Shown here: positions 8,398-36,327 of the stretch, piece after piece
Layout of the letters: the number at the start of each line of letters is the position of its first letter
How positions within the stretch are numbered: position 1 is the stretch's first letter
NCBI GenBank assembly: GCA_963790345.1
Contig: CAWBOD010000006.1
Location: 23,573 to 87,572 of the forward strand
Source of the DNA: an uncultured Acidimicrobiia bacterium
Lineage (GTDB): Bacteria; Actinomycetota; Acidimicrobiia; Spongiisociales; ZC4RG35
Direction of reading: 5' to 3'
Length of the DNA stretch: 64,000 nt
Notes under the pieces: model-generated
Databases searched by the model: none
What the model was told of the DNA's origin: nothing
Seen by the model: the letters and a program-made list of their open reading frames with translations, nothing else
Program-made: the position numbers and the translations under genes

Positions 8398-9766
8398 TCA
8401 ACTGCGTCGACTTCCTGACCATTCTCCTCGGAGTCCAAAGAGCTCTTCATCGATCGAGAGATCTACCGGGTTTCCCTCGCTATCAACGGCCCTGGCCGCG
8501 GCGATCACGGCTTCGACCGCCTTGTTCCTCAGAATATCACCGGCCAGCGACAAGGCTCGCGGGCTGTTGGTGAAGGCGTCGAACACCTCTTTGGCATTCT
8601 CCGAGGACCTGGCCAGGGCCTCGATCGTGGCGGCGACTTCCTCCGGACGTGACCTTGATGTCCTCGGCCTTGGCGACCGCCTCGAGCACCAGCCTGGTCC
8701 GGATTGAGCGGTTCGCTTGCTGGCGGAGGTCTTCGATGAAGGCCTCCTGGTCGATCCCGGTGGCCTCGAAGTAGTCGGCCAGAGTGATCTCGTTCTCCTC
8801 CAACCGGTGCGAGAACCGATGGAACAACTCGTCCATCTCGGTGGTAACCAGACCTTCGGGAAGATCGATCTCGGCCTCGTCGACCAGCAAGTCGAGCGCC
8901 TTCTGGCGGAACTGGCTGAGAACTGCCCTCCGTTTGGTCACGGCCAGCCGCTCGGCCAGCTCGGACCGTAACTCTTCGACCGTCTCGAATTCGGTGACCT
9001 CGTTGACCCAGTCGTCGTCGAGATCCGGCAGCACCCTGGCCTTGACCTCGTTGACTTTGACCTGGAAGCTCACCGTTGTCTCCGGCCCGTTCCCCAAAGC
9101 CGGCCGGAAGCGGACGCCTCGAAGGAGACCTCCTCACCGGCGCTGTTGCCCCGCAAGCTGGTCGTCGATGCCATCGATCATGATTCCCGAGCCCGACCTC
9201 GTACAGAAGTTCGGTGGCGTTGGCTTCTTCGACCGGCGCACCCTCGGCGATGGCGCTGATGTCGATGGAAACGAAGTCGCCATCGTCGGCGGGCGCGCTC
9301 GACGGTCTCGAGGCTGGCGAACTGCTGACGCATCCGGTCGAGGCTGGCTTCCAGATCGGATTCCGATGAGCTCGGGGGCTTCGACCTCGACAGCCCGATC
9401 CTTGTAGTCCGGAGTGGCGTCGAGTTCGGGCCACAGGGTCACTCGGACCTCGGCATTGACGCCCCCCTCGATGTCGTCGACCTTCTCGAGGGTCGGGGTC
9501 ACGGCCGGGGCCAGATTGGTCTCGGTGAGGATCTCTCCCAGCTTCTTGGGGATCAGATCCTCGATCGCTTCGGTCCGAAGCCGGCCGGCACCGATCGCCG
9601 CCTCCACGACGGGGCGGGGTGCCTTGCCGGGGCGAAACCCGGGGATCTTCAGATCCTTGGCGAGCCTGCGGGCCGCGCCGGCCTTGGCGCTGTCGATCTC
9701 GGCATCGGTCAGTTCAACCGTCACCACCCGCTCAAAACGGCTGACCTCGCGGACAGTTTCGGTCAT
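8398..9766 (-). CDS. tig: Trigger factor (peptidyl-prolyl isomerase), split over 3 frames
   Basis: N-terminal MTETVREVSRFERVVTVELTDAEIDSA...IPGFRPGKAP and the middle/C-terminal segments are in different frames. Order tig-clpP-clpX is conserved. Confidence 0.8.
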
Positions 9767-9866
9767 TCCGGCCACTCGGTTCTCAACAAGGTCTGCCTCT
9801 CTTGACGCATTCGGGCTGTGGACGGTGCGATGACAACACCAACCACCATCCACCGATCTTGCTCGT

Positions 9867-9944
9867 TGGGGTGACCGAGGGGACTTGAACCCCCGACCTC
9901 CAGGGCCACAACCTGGCGCTCTAACCGAGCTGAGCTACGGCCAC
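9867..9944 (-). tRNA. tRNA-His (GTG), CCA encoded, extra 5' G
   Basis: Cloverleaf read by eye: D-arm tagctcagctcggttagagcg, anticodon stem ccagg/cctgg with loop ttGTGgc, T-arm ggttcaagtcc. Confidence 0.85.
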
Positions 9945-17236: not shown

Positions 17237-18449
17237 GTGACGATATCCATTGACCATGACGTCCGGCTGGTGCTGGCCTCGCAATCCGCTCGAGCACTCG
17301 GCTATGGATTCGGATCCGTGTTGCTTGCCTCGACGCTGGCGAGCCGGGGCCTTTCATCCATCAACGTCGGCACGGTTTTGGGTGCGCTGCTGGCCGGAAC
17401 GGTCGTTGCTCAGTTGGCGATCGGCCGCTGGGCAGATAGATGGGGGCGGCGTCGCAGCTATCAATTGATGTATCTACTACTCGGTGTGGCCGGTCTGGCC
17501 TTTGCCAGCGCCGCCCCACTCTGGGTTCTCGTGGTAGTGGCGCTGACCGGTGCCCTGTCCGCCGAAGTGATCGAATCCGGGCCGTTCACGACGCTGGAAC
17601 TGTCAATGTTGTCAGGGCGGCTCAACGCCAACGCCCTGGCCACCGGATTCGGTTGGTACAACGCCATCGCCACCGCCGCCGGGTCTCTCGGTGCGCTCGC
17701 CGCCGCTCTCCCGCAAATGGCGAGGTTGGCGTGGGACGGGGCTCCTTCAGACCGGGCCTGGTTCTTGCTCCTCGTCCCGATCGCGGCGACCGGGGTTGTC
17801 CTGGCCCGTCGATTGAGCCCGATGGTGGAAGTGACAGGAGCCGTACGAGCCGCCGCGCCCCTTGGTAGGTCACGTCCGGTTGTGACCCGCCTCGCCTCTC
17901 TGTTCGCCTTGGACTCGTTCGCCGGCGGGTTTGTCGTTCAGACGTTCGTCGCCTTCTGGCTCATCGAACGATTCGACGCCACCACGGCGAACGTCGCCGC
18001 TCTCTTCGCCACCATCGGAGTCATCCAGACCCTCTCGTTCCTGGCAGCACCGTTGATCGCCCGTCGATGGGGGCTGCTCAACACCATGGTCTTCACTCAT
18101 CTCCCCTCCAACCTGCTACTGGCCGCCGTCGCCTTCGCTCCTAATCTTCCTGTCGCCGCCGGATTCCTCCTGGCCCGGTCAGCTCTCTCCCAAATGGATG
18201 TTCCGACTCGTCAGGCACTACGTCATGACTCTGGTCCAACCGGCCGAGAGGACCGCGGCCGTTGCCTACACGAACACCGCCAAATACATCGTCCGGCCCA
18301 TCGGTCCGTTGATTGCGGGAGCTGCCATCACTGTTACCGCCGGGGCTCCATTCATCATCGCCGGCGTGATCAAGAGCATCTACGACCTCGTCCTGTGGGC
18401 TTGGTTTCGAACCGTTCCTCTCGCCATCCCCGAGGAGAGCACCGAATAA
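17237..18449 (+). CDS. MFS transporter (frame change near 18200)
   Basis: 12-TM-like pattern with GRWADRWGRRRS MFS signature loop. C-terminal segment continues in frame 18198-18449. Confidence 0.75.
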
Positions 18450-20632: not shown

Positions 20633-20786
20633 ACCCGCCCGTCAGCGATTCTCGCCGCCTGTCGTCTCCGGAATCCGGTCCACAACTCAAAGCATCGAGC
20701 CGGAACCATCGAGGATCGGACCGCTGAAGAATCGTAGGCTCTTCCCCCCATGAGGCCTCTGGCAGCCGACGGGAACCGATAGGGAT

Positions 20787-23700
20787 GTGGAGTTGCGGAG
20801 CAAGCGTCCATCGAAGGAAGACGTGCATGCCGATCATTCAGTGACCCACCGTGGCGGAATCGCTCGGAGGGCCGGGATTCGGGCCGGGGAAGGACGTCTG
20901 GTCGGCTGGGTCGCGACTCTGTTCGCGGTAACTCAAGCGAGCCATGGATTGGGGGCGACCACAGCCGACACCCTTTTCTTGTCACGTTTCGGAGTCGAAT
21001 TTCTTCCGGTGATGATTCTGGCCTCGGGTCCCGCGGTCATGTTCGCCACCGTCTTCTACATGGCAGGGATGCGCCGGTTGGGGGCGGCGCGATGGCTGGC
21101 TCCGACTCTGCTTTCACTCGCCGGATGGGTGGCCCTGGAGAGGCTGGCCGTCGCCGTTCGGATGCCGGGCGCTTATCCATTGATCTGGCTGGGGGCCCAG
21201 GTCGCAATTCTGGTCTCCTACACCGTGGTGTGGAACGCCGCCGGCGAAGTATGTACCACCCGCCAGGCCAAACGACTCTTCCCGATCTTCGCTTCTGCCG
21301 GCATCGCCGGGGCGATAGCGGGCAACGGCGTAGCGGGAACATTGACCGCTGCGCTGGGGACCGAGAATCTTCTGATCGTCCACGCCGGCCTTCTGGCAGG
21401 CGCCGCCGCCATCATGGCCACTCGGGTGAGACCGTTCATGAAGGCCTTCGAGACCAGCCTCCACTCGTCGATCTTCTCCGATCTTCGTGCCGGCCTTGAT
21501 CTCACCCGGACCAATCCCCTCCTGCGGCTGCTGGCGTGGCTAGCGATCGCCCTCAATGTTTTGTTCTTTCTCGTCGTTTTTCGCTTCAACGAGACCATCG
21601 CCACTTCATTTGGAACGGAAGCGGAGCTGGCGAGCTTCATCGGGACCTTCGCGGCGGTGGCCACTGTTGCCACCCTCGCCACGGCTCTTTTCGGTGCCGG
21701 TCCCCTGTTCAGGCAAATCGGAGTGGTCGGCACGTTGCTCATCGTTCCCGCGGTCTATCTCTTCGGCTTCGGACTGTGGTCGGTTTCATTCGGCTTGGTC
21801 ACGGCCACGCTGGTTCGGGGCGCGCAATGGGTAGCCGTCAACGCCCTGGGAGGCACTGCCTTGAGTTCCATGTTCAACGTGATCCCGGGCAAGCGCCGAA
21901 GCCAGGCGGCGACTTTCAACGCCGCCATTCCCACCCAGATCGGAACCACGATTGCCGGAGCTCTTCTGGTATTCGACTCCTCCATACCGGAACCGGGGCT
22001 CATCGTCATCGGCCTCGGGTTGTCAGTCTGGGCCCTGGCCCTCGGGGTCCGCATGCGGCATGCCTACACCGATGCTTTGGTCAGAGCCGTTCACACCGGG
22101 ATCGAGGTATTTTCGGCTCCGACCCCCGGAGTCCAAAAGCCCACCCTCGACGCCGATGCTCACGAGGCCTTGTCGACCGCCCTCTCCGATCCCAGTCCAG
22201 GAAGACGGGCGATCGCCGCCACCCTGCTGGGAAGGCTCGAATCCGACGGAAGAGAGCACTGGCCCCGAGCGCTGGCCGATGAGGATCCACAGGGTCCGCG
22301 CGGCCGCCCTTCATGCGATTTCGGATCGGCCCGAAGCAGTCGACATAGCGCGAGACCTGCTCGCTGATCCGGTTGCAAATGTCCGACGACGAGCAGTGGA
22401 AATCCTCGAGAAGCACGGGGACTCGATCAGCTCCTCGTCCGAGTCGTTGGTCGATCCCGACCCGGTGGTTCGTGCTTCAGCTGCGATTCTCACCGACCCG
22501 GACACCGGTGGCCGAATCCTGGACTCGATGCTGAGCTCGACGGACCAGGCGATGGTGCTGGCCGCCCTGGAGGCATTGGCTCACCGGCCAACACTCGTCG
22601 ATGATGATGTTGCCCGGTTCGTCACACACCCGGATCGCCAGGTACGGGCTGCGGCCGCCAGATGCCTGATCGGACGGACCGACCATATCGACACTTTGCT
22701 TTCTCTGCTCGATGACCCTTCGATCCGGGTGCGAAATGCTGCCGCTGACACCCTGGCAGCCCATCCCGATACGGTCGACGCCCTCGTTGAATTGCTGTCG
22801 CACGGCTCGGTCCGCGCCTGCGACGCAGCCTTGCAAGCTCTCGCCGAACGCGGGCTGGGAGGAGATCGATGCAGGGAGTGGATCTCGGGCGAGGTGGCCA
22901 GAGCACGGTACCTGCGCCTTCATCGGATGGTCCTGCTCGTCGGCTCCCCGACCGAAACCGTCGGCTACCTGGCCCGCCTGCTGCGATCCCGCGAGCATCG
23001 GCTGGAGCGGTGGGCATTGATGGCACTCACCGTCGCTGAGACCGAGAACGTGATTCCCGTGTTGAAACGTGCCATCTGGGCCGACGACCCCGAGATGAGC
23101 GCCCAGGCGCTGGAGGCCCTCGACTCGCTCGCCTCCCACTCCCTCGTCAGGCCTTTGATCGCACTGCTCGAGGACGATTCGACGCCCTCCAACGATGATC
23201 CCGAACAGACATTGCGGATTCTGGCCAACGACACGGATGACTGGATTCGGGCGCTGTCGATCCGAGCCTTGATGGAAGGGGACTATCCCCATCAGGACCA
23301 ATTACGAACCCGCTGGGCGACGGATTCGTCCCCCCTGGTAAGAGCGGTTATGTCAAGATCGACCAACCGAATGAACGAGACCGAAACCTTCGACACCGTT
23401 GACCGGGTATTGGCCCTGCAACGCGCCTCCATCTTCTCCGAGATCGACCCCGAAGACCTCGAGCGAATCGCCGTCGCCGCCATCGAACGCCGATATCACC
23501 CTGAGGAGACCATCTACAGATACGGAGAGGAAGGTAAGGAATTGCTCGTCGTTGTCTCCGGCGACGTGGAGGTACGGCGCCCGAATGGTCAAGCGATACG
23601 AACCTTCGGTGCCGGCGAACACGTTGGAGAATTGGCCCTCCTCGGACGCAGAACCCGGGCGGCCGATGTCATCGCCGGCCCCGCTGGGGTACACGTCCTT

Positions 23701-23799
23701 GCCTTGGAGGCAGCCGAGTTCGAAGTGATTCTGGAAGAGCGGCCTACCGTCGCCATGGCCATGCTGGCCACGTTGGCCGACCGGATGGGAACGATGTGA
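20787..23799 (+). CDS. TLC/MFS-like transporter fused to HEAT-repeat domain and C-terminal cyclic-nucleotide-binding domain (one frame change near 22270)
   Basis: N-terminal about 480 aa polytopic membrane domain resembling the ATP/ADP-translocase (TLC) fold. PBS-lyase HEAT-like repeats (DPDPVVRASAA, DPSIRVRNAAADTLA, DDPEMSAQALEAL). C-terminal cNMP-binding beta-barrel (LLVVVSGDVEV...FGAGEHVGELALLGRRTRAADVIA). Confidence 0.75.
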
Positions 23800-27136: not shown

Positions 27137-28279
27137 TCAGAGTCGTTTGGCAACCTCGTCCAGCATGACCTCCGTCGCTCCGCCACCAATCGAATGGATT
27201 CGAACATCCCGATAGAGGCGCTCGACAGCCGTCTCCCTGATGTAGCCCATGCCCCCATGGAACTGAACGCATGCGTAGAGAACCTCGTTGGCGAGCTCCC
27301 CTACGTACGCCTTCACCATTGAGACCTCCTTGACGGCATCGTCACCTCGCTCCATCAGCCAGCCCGCATGGTGTACAAGTTGTCTGCCTGCCTCGAGGCG
27401 CGCCGTCAGCATGGCCAGGCGCTGGCGAATGACCTGCTTGTCGAAGAGCGGTGACCCGAACGCTTTCCGGCGGCGGACGTGTTCCAGGGTCAATTCGAGG
27501 GCGCGACTCGCCTCACCGATCGCCTGAGCAGCAATGGCGAGACGCTCGTTCTGGAAATTGGTCATGATGTAGTAGAACCCGCGGTTCTCCTCACCGATCA
27601 GGTGATCCTCGGGGATCCAACAGTCGCTGAAGGACAACTCCGATGTATCGGAGCAGTGCCAGCCCATCTTCGGAAGGGCGCGGCTGACCGTGAACCCCTC
27701 CGCGCCTCGCGGCACCGCGAATATGGAGATGGCCCGGGATCCTTTCGAGTCGCCATGCGTGCGGGCTGCCACGAATACGAGGTCGGCGGTCCCACCGTTG
27801 GTGATGAACATCTTCGATCCGTTGATTCGCCACCCATCTCCGTCCCTGCGGGCCTTGGTTCGGATGGACGCCACATCGGAGCCGGCGTCGGCCTCGGTGA
27901 CGGCGATGGCGGTAAGGGTCTCGCCCGTGAGCATGCCTGGAAGCCAAGTCTTCTTCTGGTCGTCGGAGCCAAAGTTGAGGAGATAAGGCATCGCCAGGTC
28001 GGTGTGGACCAGGGCGGTGATCGAGAACCCGCCGTAGGTGGAACGGCCGAGTTCCTCGGCGAAGGCGATGGAAGCCAACGGGCCAAAACCTACGCCCCCA
28101 TACTGCTCGGGAACCCGCAATCCAAAGAAGCCGATGTCACCCATCTTCTTGAGAACCGCCCGGGGAACATTGGCCTCCTTCTCCCAGGCATCTGCATTCG
28201 GAAGGACCTCTTCTTCTACGAAGCGACGGGTCTGAGCCCGGATCGCGTCGAGGTCGTCGTTGTCGTAGATCGAGGTCAC
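27137..28279 (-). CDS. Acyl-CoA dehydrogenase
   Basis: Full ACAD fold with WLPGMLTGETLTAIAVTEADAGSD and C-terminal YRDVRIHSIGGGATEVM. Start position approximate. Confidence 0.85.
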   Translation of the reverse strand: MTSIYDNDDLDAIRAQTRRFVEEEVLPNADAWEKEANVPRAVLKKMGDIGFFGLRVPEQYGGVGFGPLASIAFAEELGRSTYGGFSITALVHTDLAMPYLLNFGSDDQKKTWLPGMLTGETLTAIAVTEADAGSDVASIRTKARRDGDGWRINGSKMFITNGGTADLVFVAARTHGDSKGSRAISIFAVPRGAEGFTVSRALPKMGWHCSDTSELSFSDCWIPEDHLIGEENRGFYYIMTNFQNERLAIAAQAIGEASRALELTLEHVRRRKAFGSPLFDKQVIRQRLAMLTARLEAGRQLVHHAGWLMERGDDAVKEVSMVKAYVGELANEVLYACVQFHGGMGYIRETAVERLYRDVRIHSIGGGATEVMLDEVAKRL

Positions 28280-28313
28280 AGCCTGAAGATAGGCGCAAAA
28301 GTCAGAACGTGAG

Positions 28314-28898
28314 TTGGGTACCGTTGGACGGATGAGGTCGTCTTCGACGATGGTGGCGGTTGTTGCCGAGGGCGCTCGGCCCGCCTTGGTCCGCCTCGCC
28401 GAACGTGCTGCCAACGTGGCGGCAGAAGCCGCTGGCGACCTTCCGGATTCGTGGTCGGAAGCGGCGATCGTGACCAGGGCCACCTGGGACCGGGCCGTTC
28501 GACATCGTTTGATCTACACCGTCGTGGATGTTGATCCTTTGGCGCCGGTGGTCATGGAGTGGTCTCGCAGGCTCATGGGTCAGCAACACGAGCTGGAACT
28601 GGCGATCGGCGCATCCAACCCACCAGATCCTCCCGACTTTTACCTGGTCGACGAGCAGCTCAACCATCCACTGGTCGACTGGTACCTCGGCCATCTCCGG
28701 GACCTCTCACCCGGACGGGTCGTGCCCGTGAAACTCGACCCCGAGTCGATCTCGCATGCTTTGGGGTCGCTCGGTTATGGACCCTCCTTTCCCAGTGGCA
28801 AGGAGCTGGCCGCCAGCGCCCGCGAATACGTCCCCTTGCCAGGATTGGCCGCTGTGAGCCCGAAAGGCGACGCTCCGGTCGAACAGATGTTCGACTAA
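28314..28898 (+). CDS. Hypothetical protein
   Basis: 194 aa ORF with coding-like composition and no recognisable family. Confidence 0.35.
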   Translation: MGTVGRMRSSSTMVAVVAEGARPALVRLAERAANVAAEAAGDLPDSWSEAAIVTRATWDRAVRHRLIYTVVDVDPLAPVVMEWSRRLMGQQHELELAIGASNPPDPPDFYLVDEQLNHPLVDWYLGHLRDLSPGRVVPVKLDPESISHALGSLGYGPSFPSGKELAASAREYVPLPGLAAVSPKGDAPVEQMFD

Positions 28899-28907
28899 CG
28901 TGGCCCT

Positions 28908-30856
28908 GTGGCAGAGTTCCGCTGGCGCCAGTTGGCTGATTCCCAGGACGGTCTGTTCGAGACCAGCCGGCGCGTGGTCGGTAGGGGCGAGTACCGGGGG
29001 CTGACCTTCCACGAGATCGAGGCCAGGTCGATCATCACGAAGTCCCCACCGGGGACTCCCTGGTTCGGATACTCGATCAACGCCTACAGGGGATGCAGTC
29101 ATGCGTGCAGTCTATTGCCTTGTAGGAGAGACCCCAATCCTCATGGCCAACGGTCGGACGAAACCGATAGCAAAGATCAGACCCGGCGACCGCGTGTACG
29201 GAACCAGACGCGAAGGCAACTACCGCCGATTTGTCGAAGCCGAGGTCCTCGATCATTGGGCGACTGTCAAACCCGCCTATCGAGTCCTCGCGGGTCGAGG
29301 CACTGTCTTGGTTGCCAGCGGTGACCACAGATTCCTGACAGACCGTGGCTGGAAACACGTGACCGGAAGCCAGCAAGGACCCGACCAACGCCCCCACCTG
29401 ACGATCAATAACAGACTCCTGGGTCTGGGTCCTACTGGATCACCCCCAAAACACGACGAGGACTTTCGACGCGGATATCTGTGCGGAATGATCCGCGGTG
29501 ATGGCACGGTGGGGACCTACTCATACCCTCGGCCCGGGAGAACGTCGGTCCTCGTTCACCGATTCCGTGTTGCCCTTGTGGACGGAGAAGCCCTGGAACG
29601 CACCAGAACGTTCCTTCGGGACCTGGGCGTCGAGACAAAAGCGTTTCTGTACTCCCAACCAACCGAGACGCATCGAGAATTGCGCGCGATCCGAACGTCG
29701 CGCAAAGCGGACATTGACCTGATCCGAGCAACGATTGAGTGGCCCGACGAGGCGTCGGAAGGATGGGGACGGGGTTTCCTGGCTGGGATTTTTGACGCCG
29801 AAGGAAGCCACAGCGAACACGTTCTCAGATTCTCCAATGCAGACAAGACAATTCTGACGGTCGATATCAGATCAGCTCGATCGCTTGGGATTCGATTCGG
29901 TGATCGAACCCGAGCGTGGTCAATCCCGGGTCAGAACAGTGCGTATCAGAGGCGGAATGAGTGAACACCTCCGGTTCTTCCTGACAGTCGATCCCGCAAT
30001 TACTCGAAAACGAAGCCTCCTTGGAACAGCGTTGAAAGCGAACTCGGGCATGACCGTGACGTCCGTCGAACCCTTGGGTTTCGACGTTCCGATGTACGAC
30101 ATCACGACAACGACGGGAGACTTCATCGCGAACGGAGTCGTCAGTCACAACTGCTTCGCTCGGCCGACCCATGACTACCTCGGCTTCAATATGGGCAACG
30201 ACTTCGATACGCAGATAGTCGTCAAAACCAACGCGGTCGACCTGGTTAGAGCTGAGACGATGCCGGGACGCTGGCCCGGCGACTCCATCGCCATGGGTAC
30301 CAACACCGATCCCTATCAGGCCGCGGAGGGCAAATACAAACTGACCCGGGGAATAGTCGAGGTGCTGGTCGAACGCAGCAACCCTTTCTCAATCCTGACC
30401 AAGTCGCCTCTGGTGCTGCGCGACATCGCTCTCATCACCGAGGCTTCGAAGAGAGCCGAGGTGTCCGTTTCCTTTTCCGTGGCGACGGTGGACGAAGACG
30501 TGTGGCGTCGGACCGAGCCGGGCGCCCCGCATCCACGAAAGCGACTCGAGGCGCTGGCCAAGCTCCGAGCGGCGGGTATCAGCGGCGGCGTGATGATGGC
30601 GCCGATTCTTCCGGGCATCTCCGACCGGCCTGATCAGATCGCAGCGGTCAAGCAGGCTGCACGAGAAGCCGGGGCGGAGTCGTGGCATCCGGTGAAGTTG
30701 CACCTGCGTGGGATGAGACAGCACTTTCTCGACTGGCTCAAGGAGGATTCGCCCCAGTTGGTCGAGCGATATGAAGAGATGTATCCGGAACGCCGCCCCA
30801 AGCCCCGGCAGCGAAGATCAGAAACCCCGGACCGCGACCAGCTGAGTCTCCTCTAA
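28908..30856 (+). CDS. Radical SAM protein (Rv2578c/SplB 'DNA repair photolyase'-like) interrupted by an intein; extein and intein segments lie in shifted frames
   Basis: N-extein ...FHEIEARSIITKSPPGTPWFGYSINAYRGCSHAC(VY). C-extein CFARPTHDYLGFNMGNDFDTQIVVKTNAV... continues to 30856. Predicted spliced junction CSHACVYCFARP recreates the canonical CxxxCxxC motif. Confidence 0.8.
29116..30151 (+). mobile_element. Intein with LAGLIDADG homing-endonuclease domain
   Basis: Begins CLVGETPILMANGRTKPIAKIRPGDRVYG (Hint block A). Two LAGLIDADG motifs: YLCGMIRGDG and FLAGIFDAEGS. Ends ...GDFIANGVVSHN followed by the Cys +1 extein residue. Confidence 0.8.
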
Positions 30857-31045: not shown

Positions 31046-31189
31046 TTGAGTGGGTGGATCAGCCTTCGGTGGATCGAATCGAGACAGGAAACCAGACGAT
31101 GTTTTCGCGCATCAAGCGCGGCCCGCGGGCCGCGCTTGATGCGTTAAAACCATGGAGCTCCAGGAACGTTCGGGAATCCCAAACGCTCT

Positions 31190-31541
31190 TGGAGGTGCCG
31201 GGGGTCGAACCCGGGTCCGCTGAGCCGTTGGCGCCGGCATCTCCGAGCGCAGCCGTCGGCGAGCTTTTCGATCGATGGGACCCCAACGGCGGGCTTCCCT
31301 CCGACTTATCCGGAATTGATCTTTGTCCCCCGGTCCCGGAACCCGGAGGACGCATTCCGCATTGCGGCGCCCGGTCCCGGCGAGGCGGACACCCACCGGG
31401 CGGACGGGCTGCTTTTAGTTAGGCAGCCAGTGCGAAGTTGTCTTCGGCACTTGTGTTTTTTCCCGGCTCTTTAACGAGGATCCGGAGACCTCGGCTCGCT
31501 TCCGACGCCTTAAAACTCAACGTCGAGACCATTTCACCCCC
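31190..31541 (-). ncRNA. ssrA: tmRNA (SsrA)
   Basis: 5' end ggggg ugaaauggucucgacg, tRNA-like 3' end ...ccggguucgacccccggcaccucca. Tag ORF gcc gaa gac aac ttc gca ctg gct gcc taa = AEDNFALAA*. smpB immediately upstream. Confidence 0.85.
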
Positions 31542-31555
31542 ATGGGTAAGCAAAG

Positions 31556-31626
31556 CCTAGTAGGCGGCCCTGAGTATGCGTAGGCAGCTCAGCGAATACT
31601 GCCTACTGCCTACTGATTACTGCCTT
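31556..31626. repeat. Composite GTAGGCAG / CTGCCTACT repeat element (locus B)
   Basis: ctagtaggcggcc...gcgtaggcagctc then tactgcctactgcctactgattactgcc. Lies between the smpB stop and the ssrA 5' end. Confidence 0.75.
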
Positions 31627-35202: not shown

Positions 35203-35212
<10 letters not shown>

Positions 35213-36327
35213 TCGTACCTTCCCCTTCGCCAACGGAGATAGCCGTCAACGAAAGGATCGAGGTCGCCATCGAGTACTCCCTGAATGTTCCCGACCTCGA
35301 CATCGGTGCGGAGATCCTTCACCATTTGATAGGGCTGCATCACATAACTCCGAATTTGGCGACCCCAGGCGGCTTCACCTTGCTCGCCCCTGATCTCATC
35401 GATGTCGGCCAGACGCTGCACACGGGCCAGTTCATGCAGTCGAGCTTTCAGGATCGCCATGGCCCGAGCCTTGTTCTGGAGTTGACTGCGCTCGTTTTGA
35501 ACTGCAACGACGAGACCGCTGGGAAGGTGGGTTATGCGGACCGCGGAATCGGTCTTGTTGACGTGCTGGCCGCCGGCCCCCTGCGATCGGTACGTGTCGA
35601 TACGGAGATCATCGGGACTGATCTCGAGGGCCTCGGCGTCCGACAGTTCGGGAACGACATCGACCCCGGCGAATGATGTCTGCCGCCTGGCATTCGAATC
35701 GAACGGGCTGATGCGGACCAGGCGATGAACGCCCCGCTCCCCTTCCAGGATGCCGTACGCGTGGTCCCCCCGGACCGTCATCGTGACGGACTTGACACCG
35801 GCCTCGTCGCCCTCGGTGATGTCCTCGATGGTGACGTTGAAGTCGGCGTCGGACAAATACCGCTGGTACATCCGCGCCAACATTTCCGCCCAATCCTGGG
35901 CGTCGACCCCGCCGGCCCCGGCGTGCACCGCCAGGATCGCTGGGTGATCGTCGTACTCGTCGAAGAAGAGCGACTCCCGCTCCAGCCCGGCGAGGTCCTT
36001 TTCGATTCCCGCGAGTTCGGCGTCCACCTCGGCCCTGGTAGCCCCGTCGTCAGCCTCGTCGGCTAGATCGAGGAGGACCTCGGCATCGTCGAGATGGGTT
36101 GTGAGCCGAGCGACTCTGGACAAGGGTGTTCTCGATCTGAGCGAGCCGCTGGGTCACGGCCCGACCCTCATTGGGATCGGTCCACAAGTCAGCGGCCGAA
36201 GCCCGCTCCTTCAGCTCGACGAGCTCAGTGGCCTTGCCTTCGAGGTCAAAGAAACCTCCTGGCTTCGGACAGGCGCGTCCTCAAATCAGCGATGGCAGAG
36301 CGGGGATCGATCGACTGGGTTGTCATG
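35203..36327 (-). CDS. prfB: Peptide chain release factor 2 (programmed +1 frameshift; an additional unprogrammed frame break about 100 nt downstream)
   Basis: Frame-0 MTTQSIDPRSAIADLRTRLSEARRFL* ends at the CTT TGA C shift site preceded by AGGAGG. Downstream RF2 body carries GGQHVNKTDSAVRITHLPSG. Confidence 0.85.
36245..36260 (-). promoter_or_regulatory. RF2 programmed +1 ribosomal frameshift site (internal SD AGGAGG + CUU UGA C)
   Basis: Read directly on the minus strand: gcc agg agg ttt ctt tga cct. Confidence 0.8.

Follow-up and report, generated by a model that had tools for sequence, protein, structure and literature searches.

Inteins in the radical SAM genes of Actinobacteria form a recognized group. 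According to the survey of Novikova et al. (2016; PMC4760082), SplB/COG1533 proteins carry 48 inteins in the Actinobacteria and are among the commoner bacterial intein hosts. NCBIfam holds a dedicated model, NF038136, for the "intein-containing Rv2578c family radical SAM protein". The locus described here lies in a 64,000-nucleotide stretch of DNA (the window) from an uncultured Acidimicrobiia bacterium, and it shares with these systems the host family, the place of insertion within the cluster motif, a homologous intein, and the phylum Actinomycetota. It differs in the length of its intein, 345 aa against approximately 259 positions of the profile, and in its host, which belongs to an Acidimicrobiia-type lineage. 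In the searchable literature, the terms "intein" and "SplB" are joined by the Novikova survey alone, no publication was found that joins "intein" and "CxxxCxxC", and inteins within radical SAM motifs are represented by incidental co-mentions alone. The same literature yielded no demonstration of splicing or endonuclease activity for any member of the family.

Several better-studied inteins provide points of comparison. The intein of Pyrococcus abyssi (Pab) MoaA, a redox trap (Callahan et al., 2011, as described in PMC10663303 and PMC3922620), likewise interrupts an oxygen-labile radical SAM host, and there too the N-extein cysteine at position -3 and Cys1 of the intein form a CxxC pair. Its host is MoaA in an archaeon, and disulfide control is established by experiment for the MoaA intein only. 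The mycobacterial RecA, DnaB, and SufB inteins are reported from actinobacterial hosts with DNA-repair or Fe-S-related functions, RecA being also SOS-regulated, and splicing of the DnaB and SufB inteins is described as sensitive to oxidative stress through cysteine chemistry. These hosts and insertion sites are unrelated to those considered here, and splicing has been shown experimentally for the mycobacterial inteins, as reported, whereas it is predicted for the window intein. The two-motif LAGLIDADG domain is shared with PI-SceI, PI-PfuI, TliVMA, and I-DmoI, and in the inteins among these it likewise splits the Hint splicing domain. Sequence identity is only 13-20%, the hosts differ (V-ATPase, RNR), and the window intein, at 345 aa against the 454 aa of PI-SceI, has no additional DNA-recognition region of comparable size.

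The host gene occupies positions 28908-30856 of the window and encodes a COG1533/Rv2578c-like (SplB) radical SAM protein interrupted by the intein; its features are collected in Table 1. The N-extein is 91% identical to that of the orthologue in an intact related locus, L001, over residues 5-72, and the C-extein is 88.5% identical. The nearest public relative of the host lineage is 85-86% identical. In a separate observation, related contigs match the window through SmpB at 82-97% nucleotide identity and end before the intein gene. The spliced product scores 53.9 bits on PF04055 (cut-off 29.5), with the motif CSHACSYC restored. Its best family match is NF038135 (Rv2578c family radical SAM), at 345.6 bits over profile positions 21-300 of 317, below the cut-off of 430. 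The stitched precursor of 649 aa matches NF038136 with 612.8 bits (E 7e-184, profile positions 20-559 of 574), again below the curated NCBI cut-off of 700. Since both scores lie under the curated cut-offs, the window protein is a divergent relative of these families rather than a member by the NCBI criterion.

Table 1. Features of the intein-containing radical SAM gene and its promoter (positions in the window).
Feature	Position	Strand	Remarks
LexA/SOS box TCGAACAGATGTTCGA	28879..28894	.	palindromic; 14 nt 5' of the start codon; sole match in the window
N-extein	28908..29115	+	GTG start, frame 0; ends ...YRGCSHACSY; one spurious base at 29112
First two CxxxCxxC cysteines	29094..29108	+	Cys63 29094-96, Cys67 29106-08; Cys67 is -3 from intein Cys1
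Extra C (AGTcTAT)	29112	+	frame 0 to 1; probably assembly error; from alignment to intact L001
Intein	29116..30151	+	class 1 by sequence; 345 residues and a single spurious base; Cys1 and C-terminal His-Asn, LAGLIDADG homing endonuclease domain inserted
Intein block A CLVGETPILMANG, Cys1 nucleophile	29116..29154	+	Cys1 invariant; weak TIGR01445 intein_Nterm match
Intein block B VASGDHRFLTDRGW	29311..29352	+	TxxH in the variant form SxxH; intein His71
LAGLIDADG motif 1 GYLCGMIRGDGT	29473..29508	+	acidic Asp129 kept
LAGLIDADG motif 2 GFLAGIFDAEGS	29773..29808	+	acidic Glu229 kept
Extra base (GATaTCAGAT region)	29867	+	frame 1 to 2; probably assembly error; position ambiguous, ~29862-29868
Blocks F and G of the intein (PMYDITTTTGDFIANG; VVSHN)	30089..30151	+	terminal Asn345 at 30149-30151
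Cys+1	30152..30154	+	C-extein nucleophile; third CxxxCxxC cysteine after splicing; C-F-A-R invariant after HN
C-extein	30152..30856	+	CFARPTHDY...; radical SAM core ...GTNTDPYQ...; stop 30854-56

By its sequence the insert is a genuine class-1 intein with a two-motif LAGLIDADG homing endonuclease, for which both splicing and cleavage activity are predicted. The Cys1 codon, TGC, spans 29116-29118 in frame 1, and the C-terminal junction VVSHN/C falls at 30137-30154. Among 58 homologues Cys1, the block B His, the block F Asp, the terminal His-Asn, and Cys+1 are all invariant, and every intein at this insertion site (58/58) starts with C and ends with HN. Block B reads SGDH, with Ser in place of the canonical Thr; three of its residues (S, D, H) do not vary across the same set, and the motif aligns with the block B of 4o1r, a DnaB mini-intein. 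Blocks F and G likewise keep D, T, DF, and SHN without exception. The endonuclease retains both LAGLIDADG motifs (...MIRGDG and ...IFDAEG), each with its terminal acidic residue. The Pfam LAGLIDADG_3 profile is matched at 35.4 bits (cut-off 22.5) and TIGR01443 intein_Cterm at 16.8 bits (cut-off 15.6), and the intein alone aligns with the intein segment of NF038136 (235 bits, profile positions 76-334). Searches of PDB sequences with the intein and with the spliced extein gave marginal matches alone (E ~0.03 to 0.9). As no close relative has a solved structure in the PDB, the fold was addressed with a predicted model and Foldseek. The AlphaFold model used is that of P0001, a homologue 86% identical to the window protein rather than the window protein itself, and has a pLDDT of ~90 across the intein. 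Its top PDB matches are the inteins TliVMA, PI-PfuI, and PI-SceI, with E values between 1e-11 and 1e-14. Its endonuclease domain superimposes on I-DmoI with a TM score of 0.79 (0.76-0.80 over ~185 columns), in keeping with the paired alpha-beta-beta-alpha-beta-beta-alpha fold of two-motif LAGLIDADG endonucleases.

The intein follows Tyr(-1) and directly precedes the residue that is the third cysteine of the motif CxxxCxxC (CSHACxY / CFARPTH). In the precursor Cys1 of the intein directly follows C-x3-C-x2 and takes the place of the third cysteine. Related loci with a readable motif number 78; in 57 of these an intein occupies exactly this position, and in 20 the site is empty. The 57 loci and the window all read C1...HN/C at the same position, and intact homologues with an intein number over 100. 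All 20 intein-free alleles read CSHACxYCFARPTH, and the predicted spliced product of the window gene aligns with them across the junction. A LAGLIDADG intein at 29116-30151, inserted exactly at the third cluster cysteine, had been proposed in an earlier note drawn up from the DNA alone. The profile matches bear out the intein, its coordinates are correct to the base, and the intein-free alleles agree with the further claim that excision would restore CSHACxYC and make the +1 nucleophile the third cluster cysteine. The description of the host as unusual for an intein does not stand, given the inteins counted by Novikova et al., the dedicated NCBIfam model, and the abundance of intact homologues.

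The family is widespread, inteins with the identical insertion site being present in Acidimicrobiia, Solirubrobacterales, and Pseudonocardiaceae, across three actinobacterial classes. Several of its features are consistent with mobility. The empty site, GGATGCAGTCATGCGTGCAGTTAT/TGCTTCGCTCGGCCGACCCATGAC, comprises 48 nt with 86% nucleotide conservation, and it is this strongly conserved site of intein-free alleles that the endonuclease would be expected to cut. Mini-intein versions occur as well (P0016 and P0018, of 455 aa, and L060), and homing would account for the scattered occurrence of complete, mini, and missing inteins at a single site. GC3 is 0.62 in the intein vs. 0.76 in the extein, and dS is 0.70 vs. 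1.25. Strong purifying selection acts on extein and intein alike (dN/dS 0.05 and 0.145, respectively), and the endonuclease domain has a ratio of 0.18.

The promoter of the host gene contains a predicted operator that by sequence is a perfect TCGAAC-N4-GTTCGA box. Of 76 related loci, 71 have the core GAAC-N4-GTTC in the equivalent position, whether or not an intein is present. In Mycobacterium tuberculosis the promoter of Rv2578c is bound by LexA (ChIP) and RecA-dependent (PMC3381160). The host is thus a predicted LexA/SOS-regulated radical SAM gene.

Splicing is expected to follow the established class-1 mechanism, from which the individual steps are taken. An N-S acyl shift at Cys1, helped by the block B His, would be followed by trans-thioesterification, moving the N-extein to Cys+1; the terminal Asn345 would then cyclise with the help of the penultimate His, and a final S-N shift would give CSHACSYCFARPTH. 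As the product of this last step, the radical SAM cluster loop would be present only after splicing. The coupling of splicing to cluster assembly suggested in the earlier note holds in a trivial sense only, in that no mature cluster loop exists before splicing.

A stronger form of coupling may be envisaged, in which the intein is more than a selfish element and serves as a switch that makes splicing conditional on the redox or Fe-S state of the cell. Before excision, the cysteines at -7 and -3 together with Cys1 of the intein still make up a CxxxCxxC motif. A disulfide between Cys(-3) and Cys1 (CxxC), or between Cys1 and Cys+1, would block the first splicing step under oxidizing conditions, and a metal or cluster bound at Cys1 could likewise hold the precursor unspliced. 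Release of the oxygen-labile radical SAM enzyme would in that case require a cell that is both reducing and SOS-induced. Cys(-3) (Cys67, 29106-08) is nearly invariant and Cys1 invariant among intein-bearing alleles, and Cys63 and Cys67 are both invariant or nearly so among the 58 homologues, yet this conservation can be ascribed to the role of the cysteines as cluster ligands and need not reflect control of splicing. A native Cys-3/Cys1 disulfide is described as controlling the P. abyssi MoaA intein, also in an oxygen-labile radical SAM host (PMC10663303, PMC3922620), but that intein may sit either in CxxxCxxC or in the second cluster motif of MoaA. The membership of the host gene in a stress (SOS) regulon would suit a switch, as would retention of the intein across three actinobacterial classes under purifying selection. 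Against this, intein-free alleles are common among close relatives, so that the intein is dispensable, and the difference in composition, the mini-inteins, and the patchy distribution fit a selfish homing cycle. On this evidence redox or cluster gating is plausible but appears unlikely. If true, it would add a post-translational layer atop LexA control, with an SOS-induced repair enzyme that matures only in reducing conditions.

Extein and intein are out of frame with one another in the window, as the earlier note had observed, and the disagreement resolves into two +1 steps, each due to one base that L001 does not have, at 29112 (a C) and at 29867. The gene is colinear with that of intact L001, at 81% nucleotide identity, and two uncompensated 1-nt insertions are the sole frame changes separating them. 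Deleting the base at 29112 yields CSHACSYC, as in P0001 and L001, and deleting that at 29867 yields ...KTILTVDTDQLDRLGFDS, colinear with TILTVVTDQLSRFGFDS of P0001. The earlier note had left open whether the intein was decaying or the assembly contained indels. Genuine frameshifts would make this a recently inactivated pseudogene in which the intein decays along with its host. Two uncompensated 1-nt insertions within 1.95 kb and outside long homopolymers could be read in this way. In addition, the acidic residue of the first LAGLIDADG motif is already missing (RGGG) from P0001, the intact homologue that lies closest, indicating that endonuclease decay does occur in the clade. Once both bases are deleted, however, the reading has zero in-frame stops and zero larger deletions, and the dN/dS values of 0.05 to 0.18 indicate selection over essentially the whole divergence. 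Moreover, five further uncompensated 1-nt insertions are found in the window, at 18218, 25723, 26085, 34496 (ftsE), and 36131 (prfB). Insertions of the same kind break five other genes of a 21-kb syntenic block, among them ftsE and the essential prfB together with MBL-fold and PNPOx genes and one more ORF, all of them intact in L001 or L081. The trigger factor gene in the window is likewise broken, several times. Outside the radical SAM gene the insertion rate is ~0.37 per kb, corresponding to 0.7 expected in the gene itself; a count of at least two then has a Poisson probability of ~0.17, so that the gene is not enriched in insertions. The same kind of insertion in syntenic genes and the low dN/dS lead us to read the breaks as assembly noise and not as intein decay. 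The two frame breaks are most likely, from these comparisons of sequence, single-base insertion errors of a noisy assembly and not part of the biology of the gene, and there is only a slim chance that the gene is an inactivated pseudogene. Of the two explanations offered in the earlier note, the assembly indel is retained and decay is set aside.

Removal of the two extra bases also bears on whether the insert might be a non-splicing Hint-domain or bacterial intein-like (BIL) insertion, or a free-standing endonuclease gene, since the corrected insert has neither a start nor a stop codon of its own. Such readings draw on the weakness of the generic intein profiles, which match below their cut-offs (TIGR01445 at 17-18 bits vs. 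24.5, Pfam Intein_splicing at 16.6 vs. 35.8). They are rejected because no class-1 catalytic residue is missing or variable, the terminal HN and Cys+1 included, and because removal of the insert exactly restores the host motif of intein-free alleles. The agreement of the fold with inteins of the PI-SceI and PI-PfuI class argues in the same direction, and the probability that the insert is anything other than a true intein is very small. Least probable of all are programmed +1 ribosomal frameshifts regulating expression of the precursor, for which the window offers one genuine programmed site, in prfB (AGGAGG TTT CTT TGA C), and which are rejected because neither site in the radical SAM gene is set in a slippery or stop context, L001 and every other homologue lack the extra bases, and the same insertions lie at random places in other genes.

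Taken jointly, the locus is very probably a class-1 LAGLIDADG intein in an SOS-regulated COG1533 gene of an Acidimicrobiia-type actinobacterium, with frame breaks that are assembly errors. In annotation, the three fragmentary ORFs of 28908-30856 should be joined as one intein-containing radical SAM gene, and the assembly needs indel polishing ahead of any pseudogene calls. The intein family in Rv2578c-like radical SAM genes is already catalogued, and the window locus adds an Acidimicrobiia member. The insertion point at the third [4Fe-4S] cysteine and the conserved SOS box of the host appear not to have been discussed in the searchable literature. With insertion at a cluster cysteine and an SOS box in the host promoter, the family may offer a convenient natural test case for the hypothesis of redox/cluster-dependent conditional splicing.

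The insert interrupting the COG1533/Rv2578c-like radical SAM gene at 28908-30856 is a LAGLIDADG intein, as the earlier note had proposed, and the bounds given for it, 29116-30151, are exact to the Cys1 and terminal Asn codons. An ORF reading of the window resolves the gene into three overlapping plus-strand ORFs. The stitched 649-aa precursor matches NF038136, the model curated at NCBI specifically for this intein-bearing family ("intein-containing Rv2578c family radical SAM protein"; NCBIfam), with an E of 7e-184 and 612.8 bits over profile positions 20-559 of 574. The insert alone scores 235 bits against the intein segment of that model (profile 76-334) and 35.4 bits against Pfam LAGLIDADG_3 (cut-off 22.5), and the spliced product scores 345.6 bits against NF038135 (Rv2578c family) and 53.9 bits against PF04055 (Radical_SAM). 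The alignment of 58 homologues shows no variation at Cys1, the block B S-x-D-H, the block F Asp, S-H-N or C-F-A-R. An AlphaFold model of P0001, the closest intact homologous protein (86% identical), has a pLDDT of ~90 over the intein. In the PDB it most closely resembles LAGLIDADG inteins, namely TliVMA, PI-PfuI and PI-SceI (E 1e-11 to 1e-14), along with I-DmoI (TM 0.79).

Features of the radical SAM gene and its surroundings, with single-base insertions relative to the intact orthologue
Feature	Position	Strand	Remarks
1-nt insertion	18218		unnamed ORF
1-nt insertion	25723		MBL-fold gene
1-nt insertion	26085		PNPOx-like gene
Acyl-CoA dehydrogenase	27137-28483	-	
Conserved 194-aa ORF	28314-28898	+	ends 10 nt before radical SAM start
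LexA operator, perfect actinobacterial	28879-28894		TCGAACAGATGTTCGA; 14 nt upstream of radical SAM start codon
Frame 0 ORF	from GTG 28908	+	MAEFRW...INAYRGCSHAC
1-nt insertion (C)	29112		radical SAM gene
Frame 1 ORF		+	(V)YCLVGETPILMANG...GYLCGMIRGDGT...GFLAGIFDAEGS...KTILTV
Intein Cys1 codon	29116-18	+	read from sequence
1-nt insertion	29867		radical SAM gene
Frame 2 ORF	stop 30854-56	+	...DQLDRLGFDSVIEPERG...PMYDITTTTGDFIANGVVSHNCFARPTHDYLGF...GTNTDPYQ...
Terminal intein Asn codon	30149-51	+	read from sequence
Cys+1 codon	30152-54	+	read from sequence
tmRNA	31189-31541	-	followed in window order by smpB, M23 peptidase, ftsX, ftsE, prfB
1-nt insertion	34496		ftsE
1-nt insertion	36131		prfB

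Among 80 loci from GTDB genomes, 78 with a readable motif, 57 have an intein inserted at exactly the same position (YRGCSHACxY/C...HN/CFARPTH, slashes marking the intein ends) and 20 an uninterrupted CSHACxYCFARPTH; every intein at the site starts with Cys and ends in His-Asn, followed by Cys. The third cysteine of CxxxCxxC thus doubles as the +1 nucleophile, which bears out the proposed insertion site; in the precursor its place is occupied by Cys1. Read onto the established class-1 pathway, the residues and positions observed here would allow an N-S acyl shift at Cys1 assisted by block B His71, transfer of the N-extein to Cys+1, cyclisation of Asn345 assisted by the penultimate His, and an S-N shift yielding ...CSHACSY-CFARPTH... 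and so creating the radical SAM cluster loop. Both acidic residues of the endonuclease are kept (Asp129 and Glu229), and the enzyme presumably cuts the empty site, which is 86% conserved. Inteins typically insert into conserved catalytic motifs that offer a Cys, Ser or Thr at +1, so insertion at a cluster cysteine is unsurprising; that no discussion of it was found in the literature searched is a small point of interest.

The frame breaks probably reflect assembly errors. In a nucleotide comparison, the gene aligns colinearly with its intact 652-codon counterpart in an Acidimicrobiia MAG (L001; DATLEZ010000039; 81% identity over 1944 nt). The two single-base insertions in the table are its sole uncompensated differences from that gene, and deleting them leaves a clean 648-codon ORF. 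Uncompensated 1-nt insertions also break five other genes in the 21-kb block syntenic with L001, all intact there, and those in ftsE and prfB are absent from L081, an independent short-read contig. These insertions are probably a systematic insertion-type assembly error. All uncompensated coding indels relative to L001 are such tabulated window insertions, mostly away from homopolymers and at ~1 per 2-3 kb of aligned stretches. The rate outside the radical SAM gene (~0.37 per kb) predicts ~0.7 within it, and the Poisson probability of at least two is ~0.17, so the gene does not stand out. Nei-Gojobori dN/dS relative to L001 is 0.05 for the extein and 0.145 for the intein (endonuclease domain 0.18, Hint domain 0.11), indicating that purifying selection has acted on both. 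Decay of the intein, which the earlier note had offered beside assembly indels, is disfavoured by insertions of this kind in five other genes of the syntenic block and by the low dN/dS.

Other genes in the window show irregular frames. In the trigger factor gene (8540-9934, minus strand), Trigger_N and Trigger_C fall on different ORFs, the frame changes several times and an in-frame stop is apparent at 9134-9136; assembly noise of the same kind is the probable cause. At 20754-23796 on the plus strand, two overlapping ORFs make up one long gene, probably broken by a frameshift near 22290; its product joins an N-terminal region resembling a membrane transporter to HEAT repeats and a cNMP-binding domain. 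In prfB (RF2; 35206-36325, minus strand), AGGAGG TTT CTT TGA C near 36242-36258 looks like a natural programmed +1 frameshift site, with the artefact-type insertion (near 36125-36131) ~115 nt downstream of it.

The host is not unusual, contrary to the initial reading. In the survey of Novikova et al. (2016; PMC4760082), SplB/COG1533 is one of the more frequent bacterial hosts, with 48 inteins, all in Actinobacteria. Besides the dedicated NCBI model, more than 100 clusters of intact precursors of 640-720 aa with Radical_SAM and LAGLIDADG_3 came up in the protein search. Carriers in the genome scan belong to Acidimicrobiia, Solirubrobacterales, Conexibacter and Baekduia, and also to cultured Pseudonocardia, Amycolatopsis, Saccharothrix and Streptoalloteichus. 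The intein family is thus already catalogued (NCBIfam; Novikova et al., 2016), and the window copy is a new, somewhat divergent member, since it falls below the NCBI curated cut-offs and its nearest relative is 85-86% identical. Intein lengths at the site group around ~292 and ~345 aa, mini-inteins without an endonuclease domain occur in locus L060 (162 aa) and in proteins P0016 and P0018 (455-aa precursors), and close relatives include empty alleles, a pattern typical of a homing cycle. LAGLIDADG motif 1 of P0001 reads RGGG instead of RGDG, and its endonuclease may be dead; P0001, P0016, P0018 and L060 look like stages of the cycle inside one clade. GC3 is 0.62 in the intein vs 0.76 in the extein, and dS relative to L001 is 0.70 vs 1.25. 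Both lower intein values are consistent with mobility, though codon usage may also play a part, and the lower dS hints at more recent sharing through homing or gene conversion.

Gating of splicing by redox or cluster state is plausible because Cys(-3) of the N-extein (Cys67) and Cys1 form a CxxC pair and because a native disulfide between Cys-3 and Cys1 controls the MoaA intein of P. abyssi, likewise hosted by an oxygen-labile radical SAM enzyme (PMC10663303, PMC3922620). It nevertheless seems unlikely, as the cysteines would be conserved in any case as cluster ligands and alleles without the intein are common.

The LexA operator lies within the 3' end of the upstream 194-aa ORF, which is 78% identical in L001 and has no Pfam match. 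Beyond the radical SAM gene, the smpB-ssrA spacer holds a short TACTGCC heptamer repeat (31597-31625; TACTGCCTACTGCCTACTGATTACTGCC) whose copy number varies between close relatives (L081-L084). Of 76 related loci, 71 have GAAC-N4-GTTC at the position corresponding to the operator, with and without an intein alike, and the M. tuberculosis Rv2578c promoter has a ChIP-seq LexA site and RecA-dependent induction (PMC3381160). Operator, conservation and the M. tuberculosis data together thus indicate that the host is a conserved SOS gene. Such a host is in line with the known preference of inteins for proteins of replication and repair.
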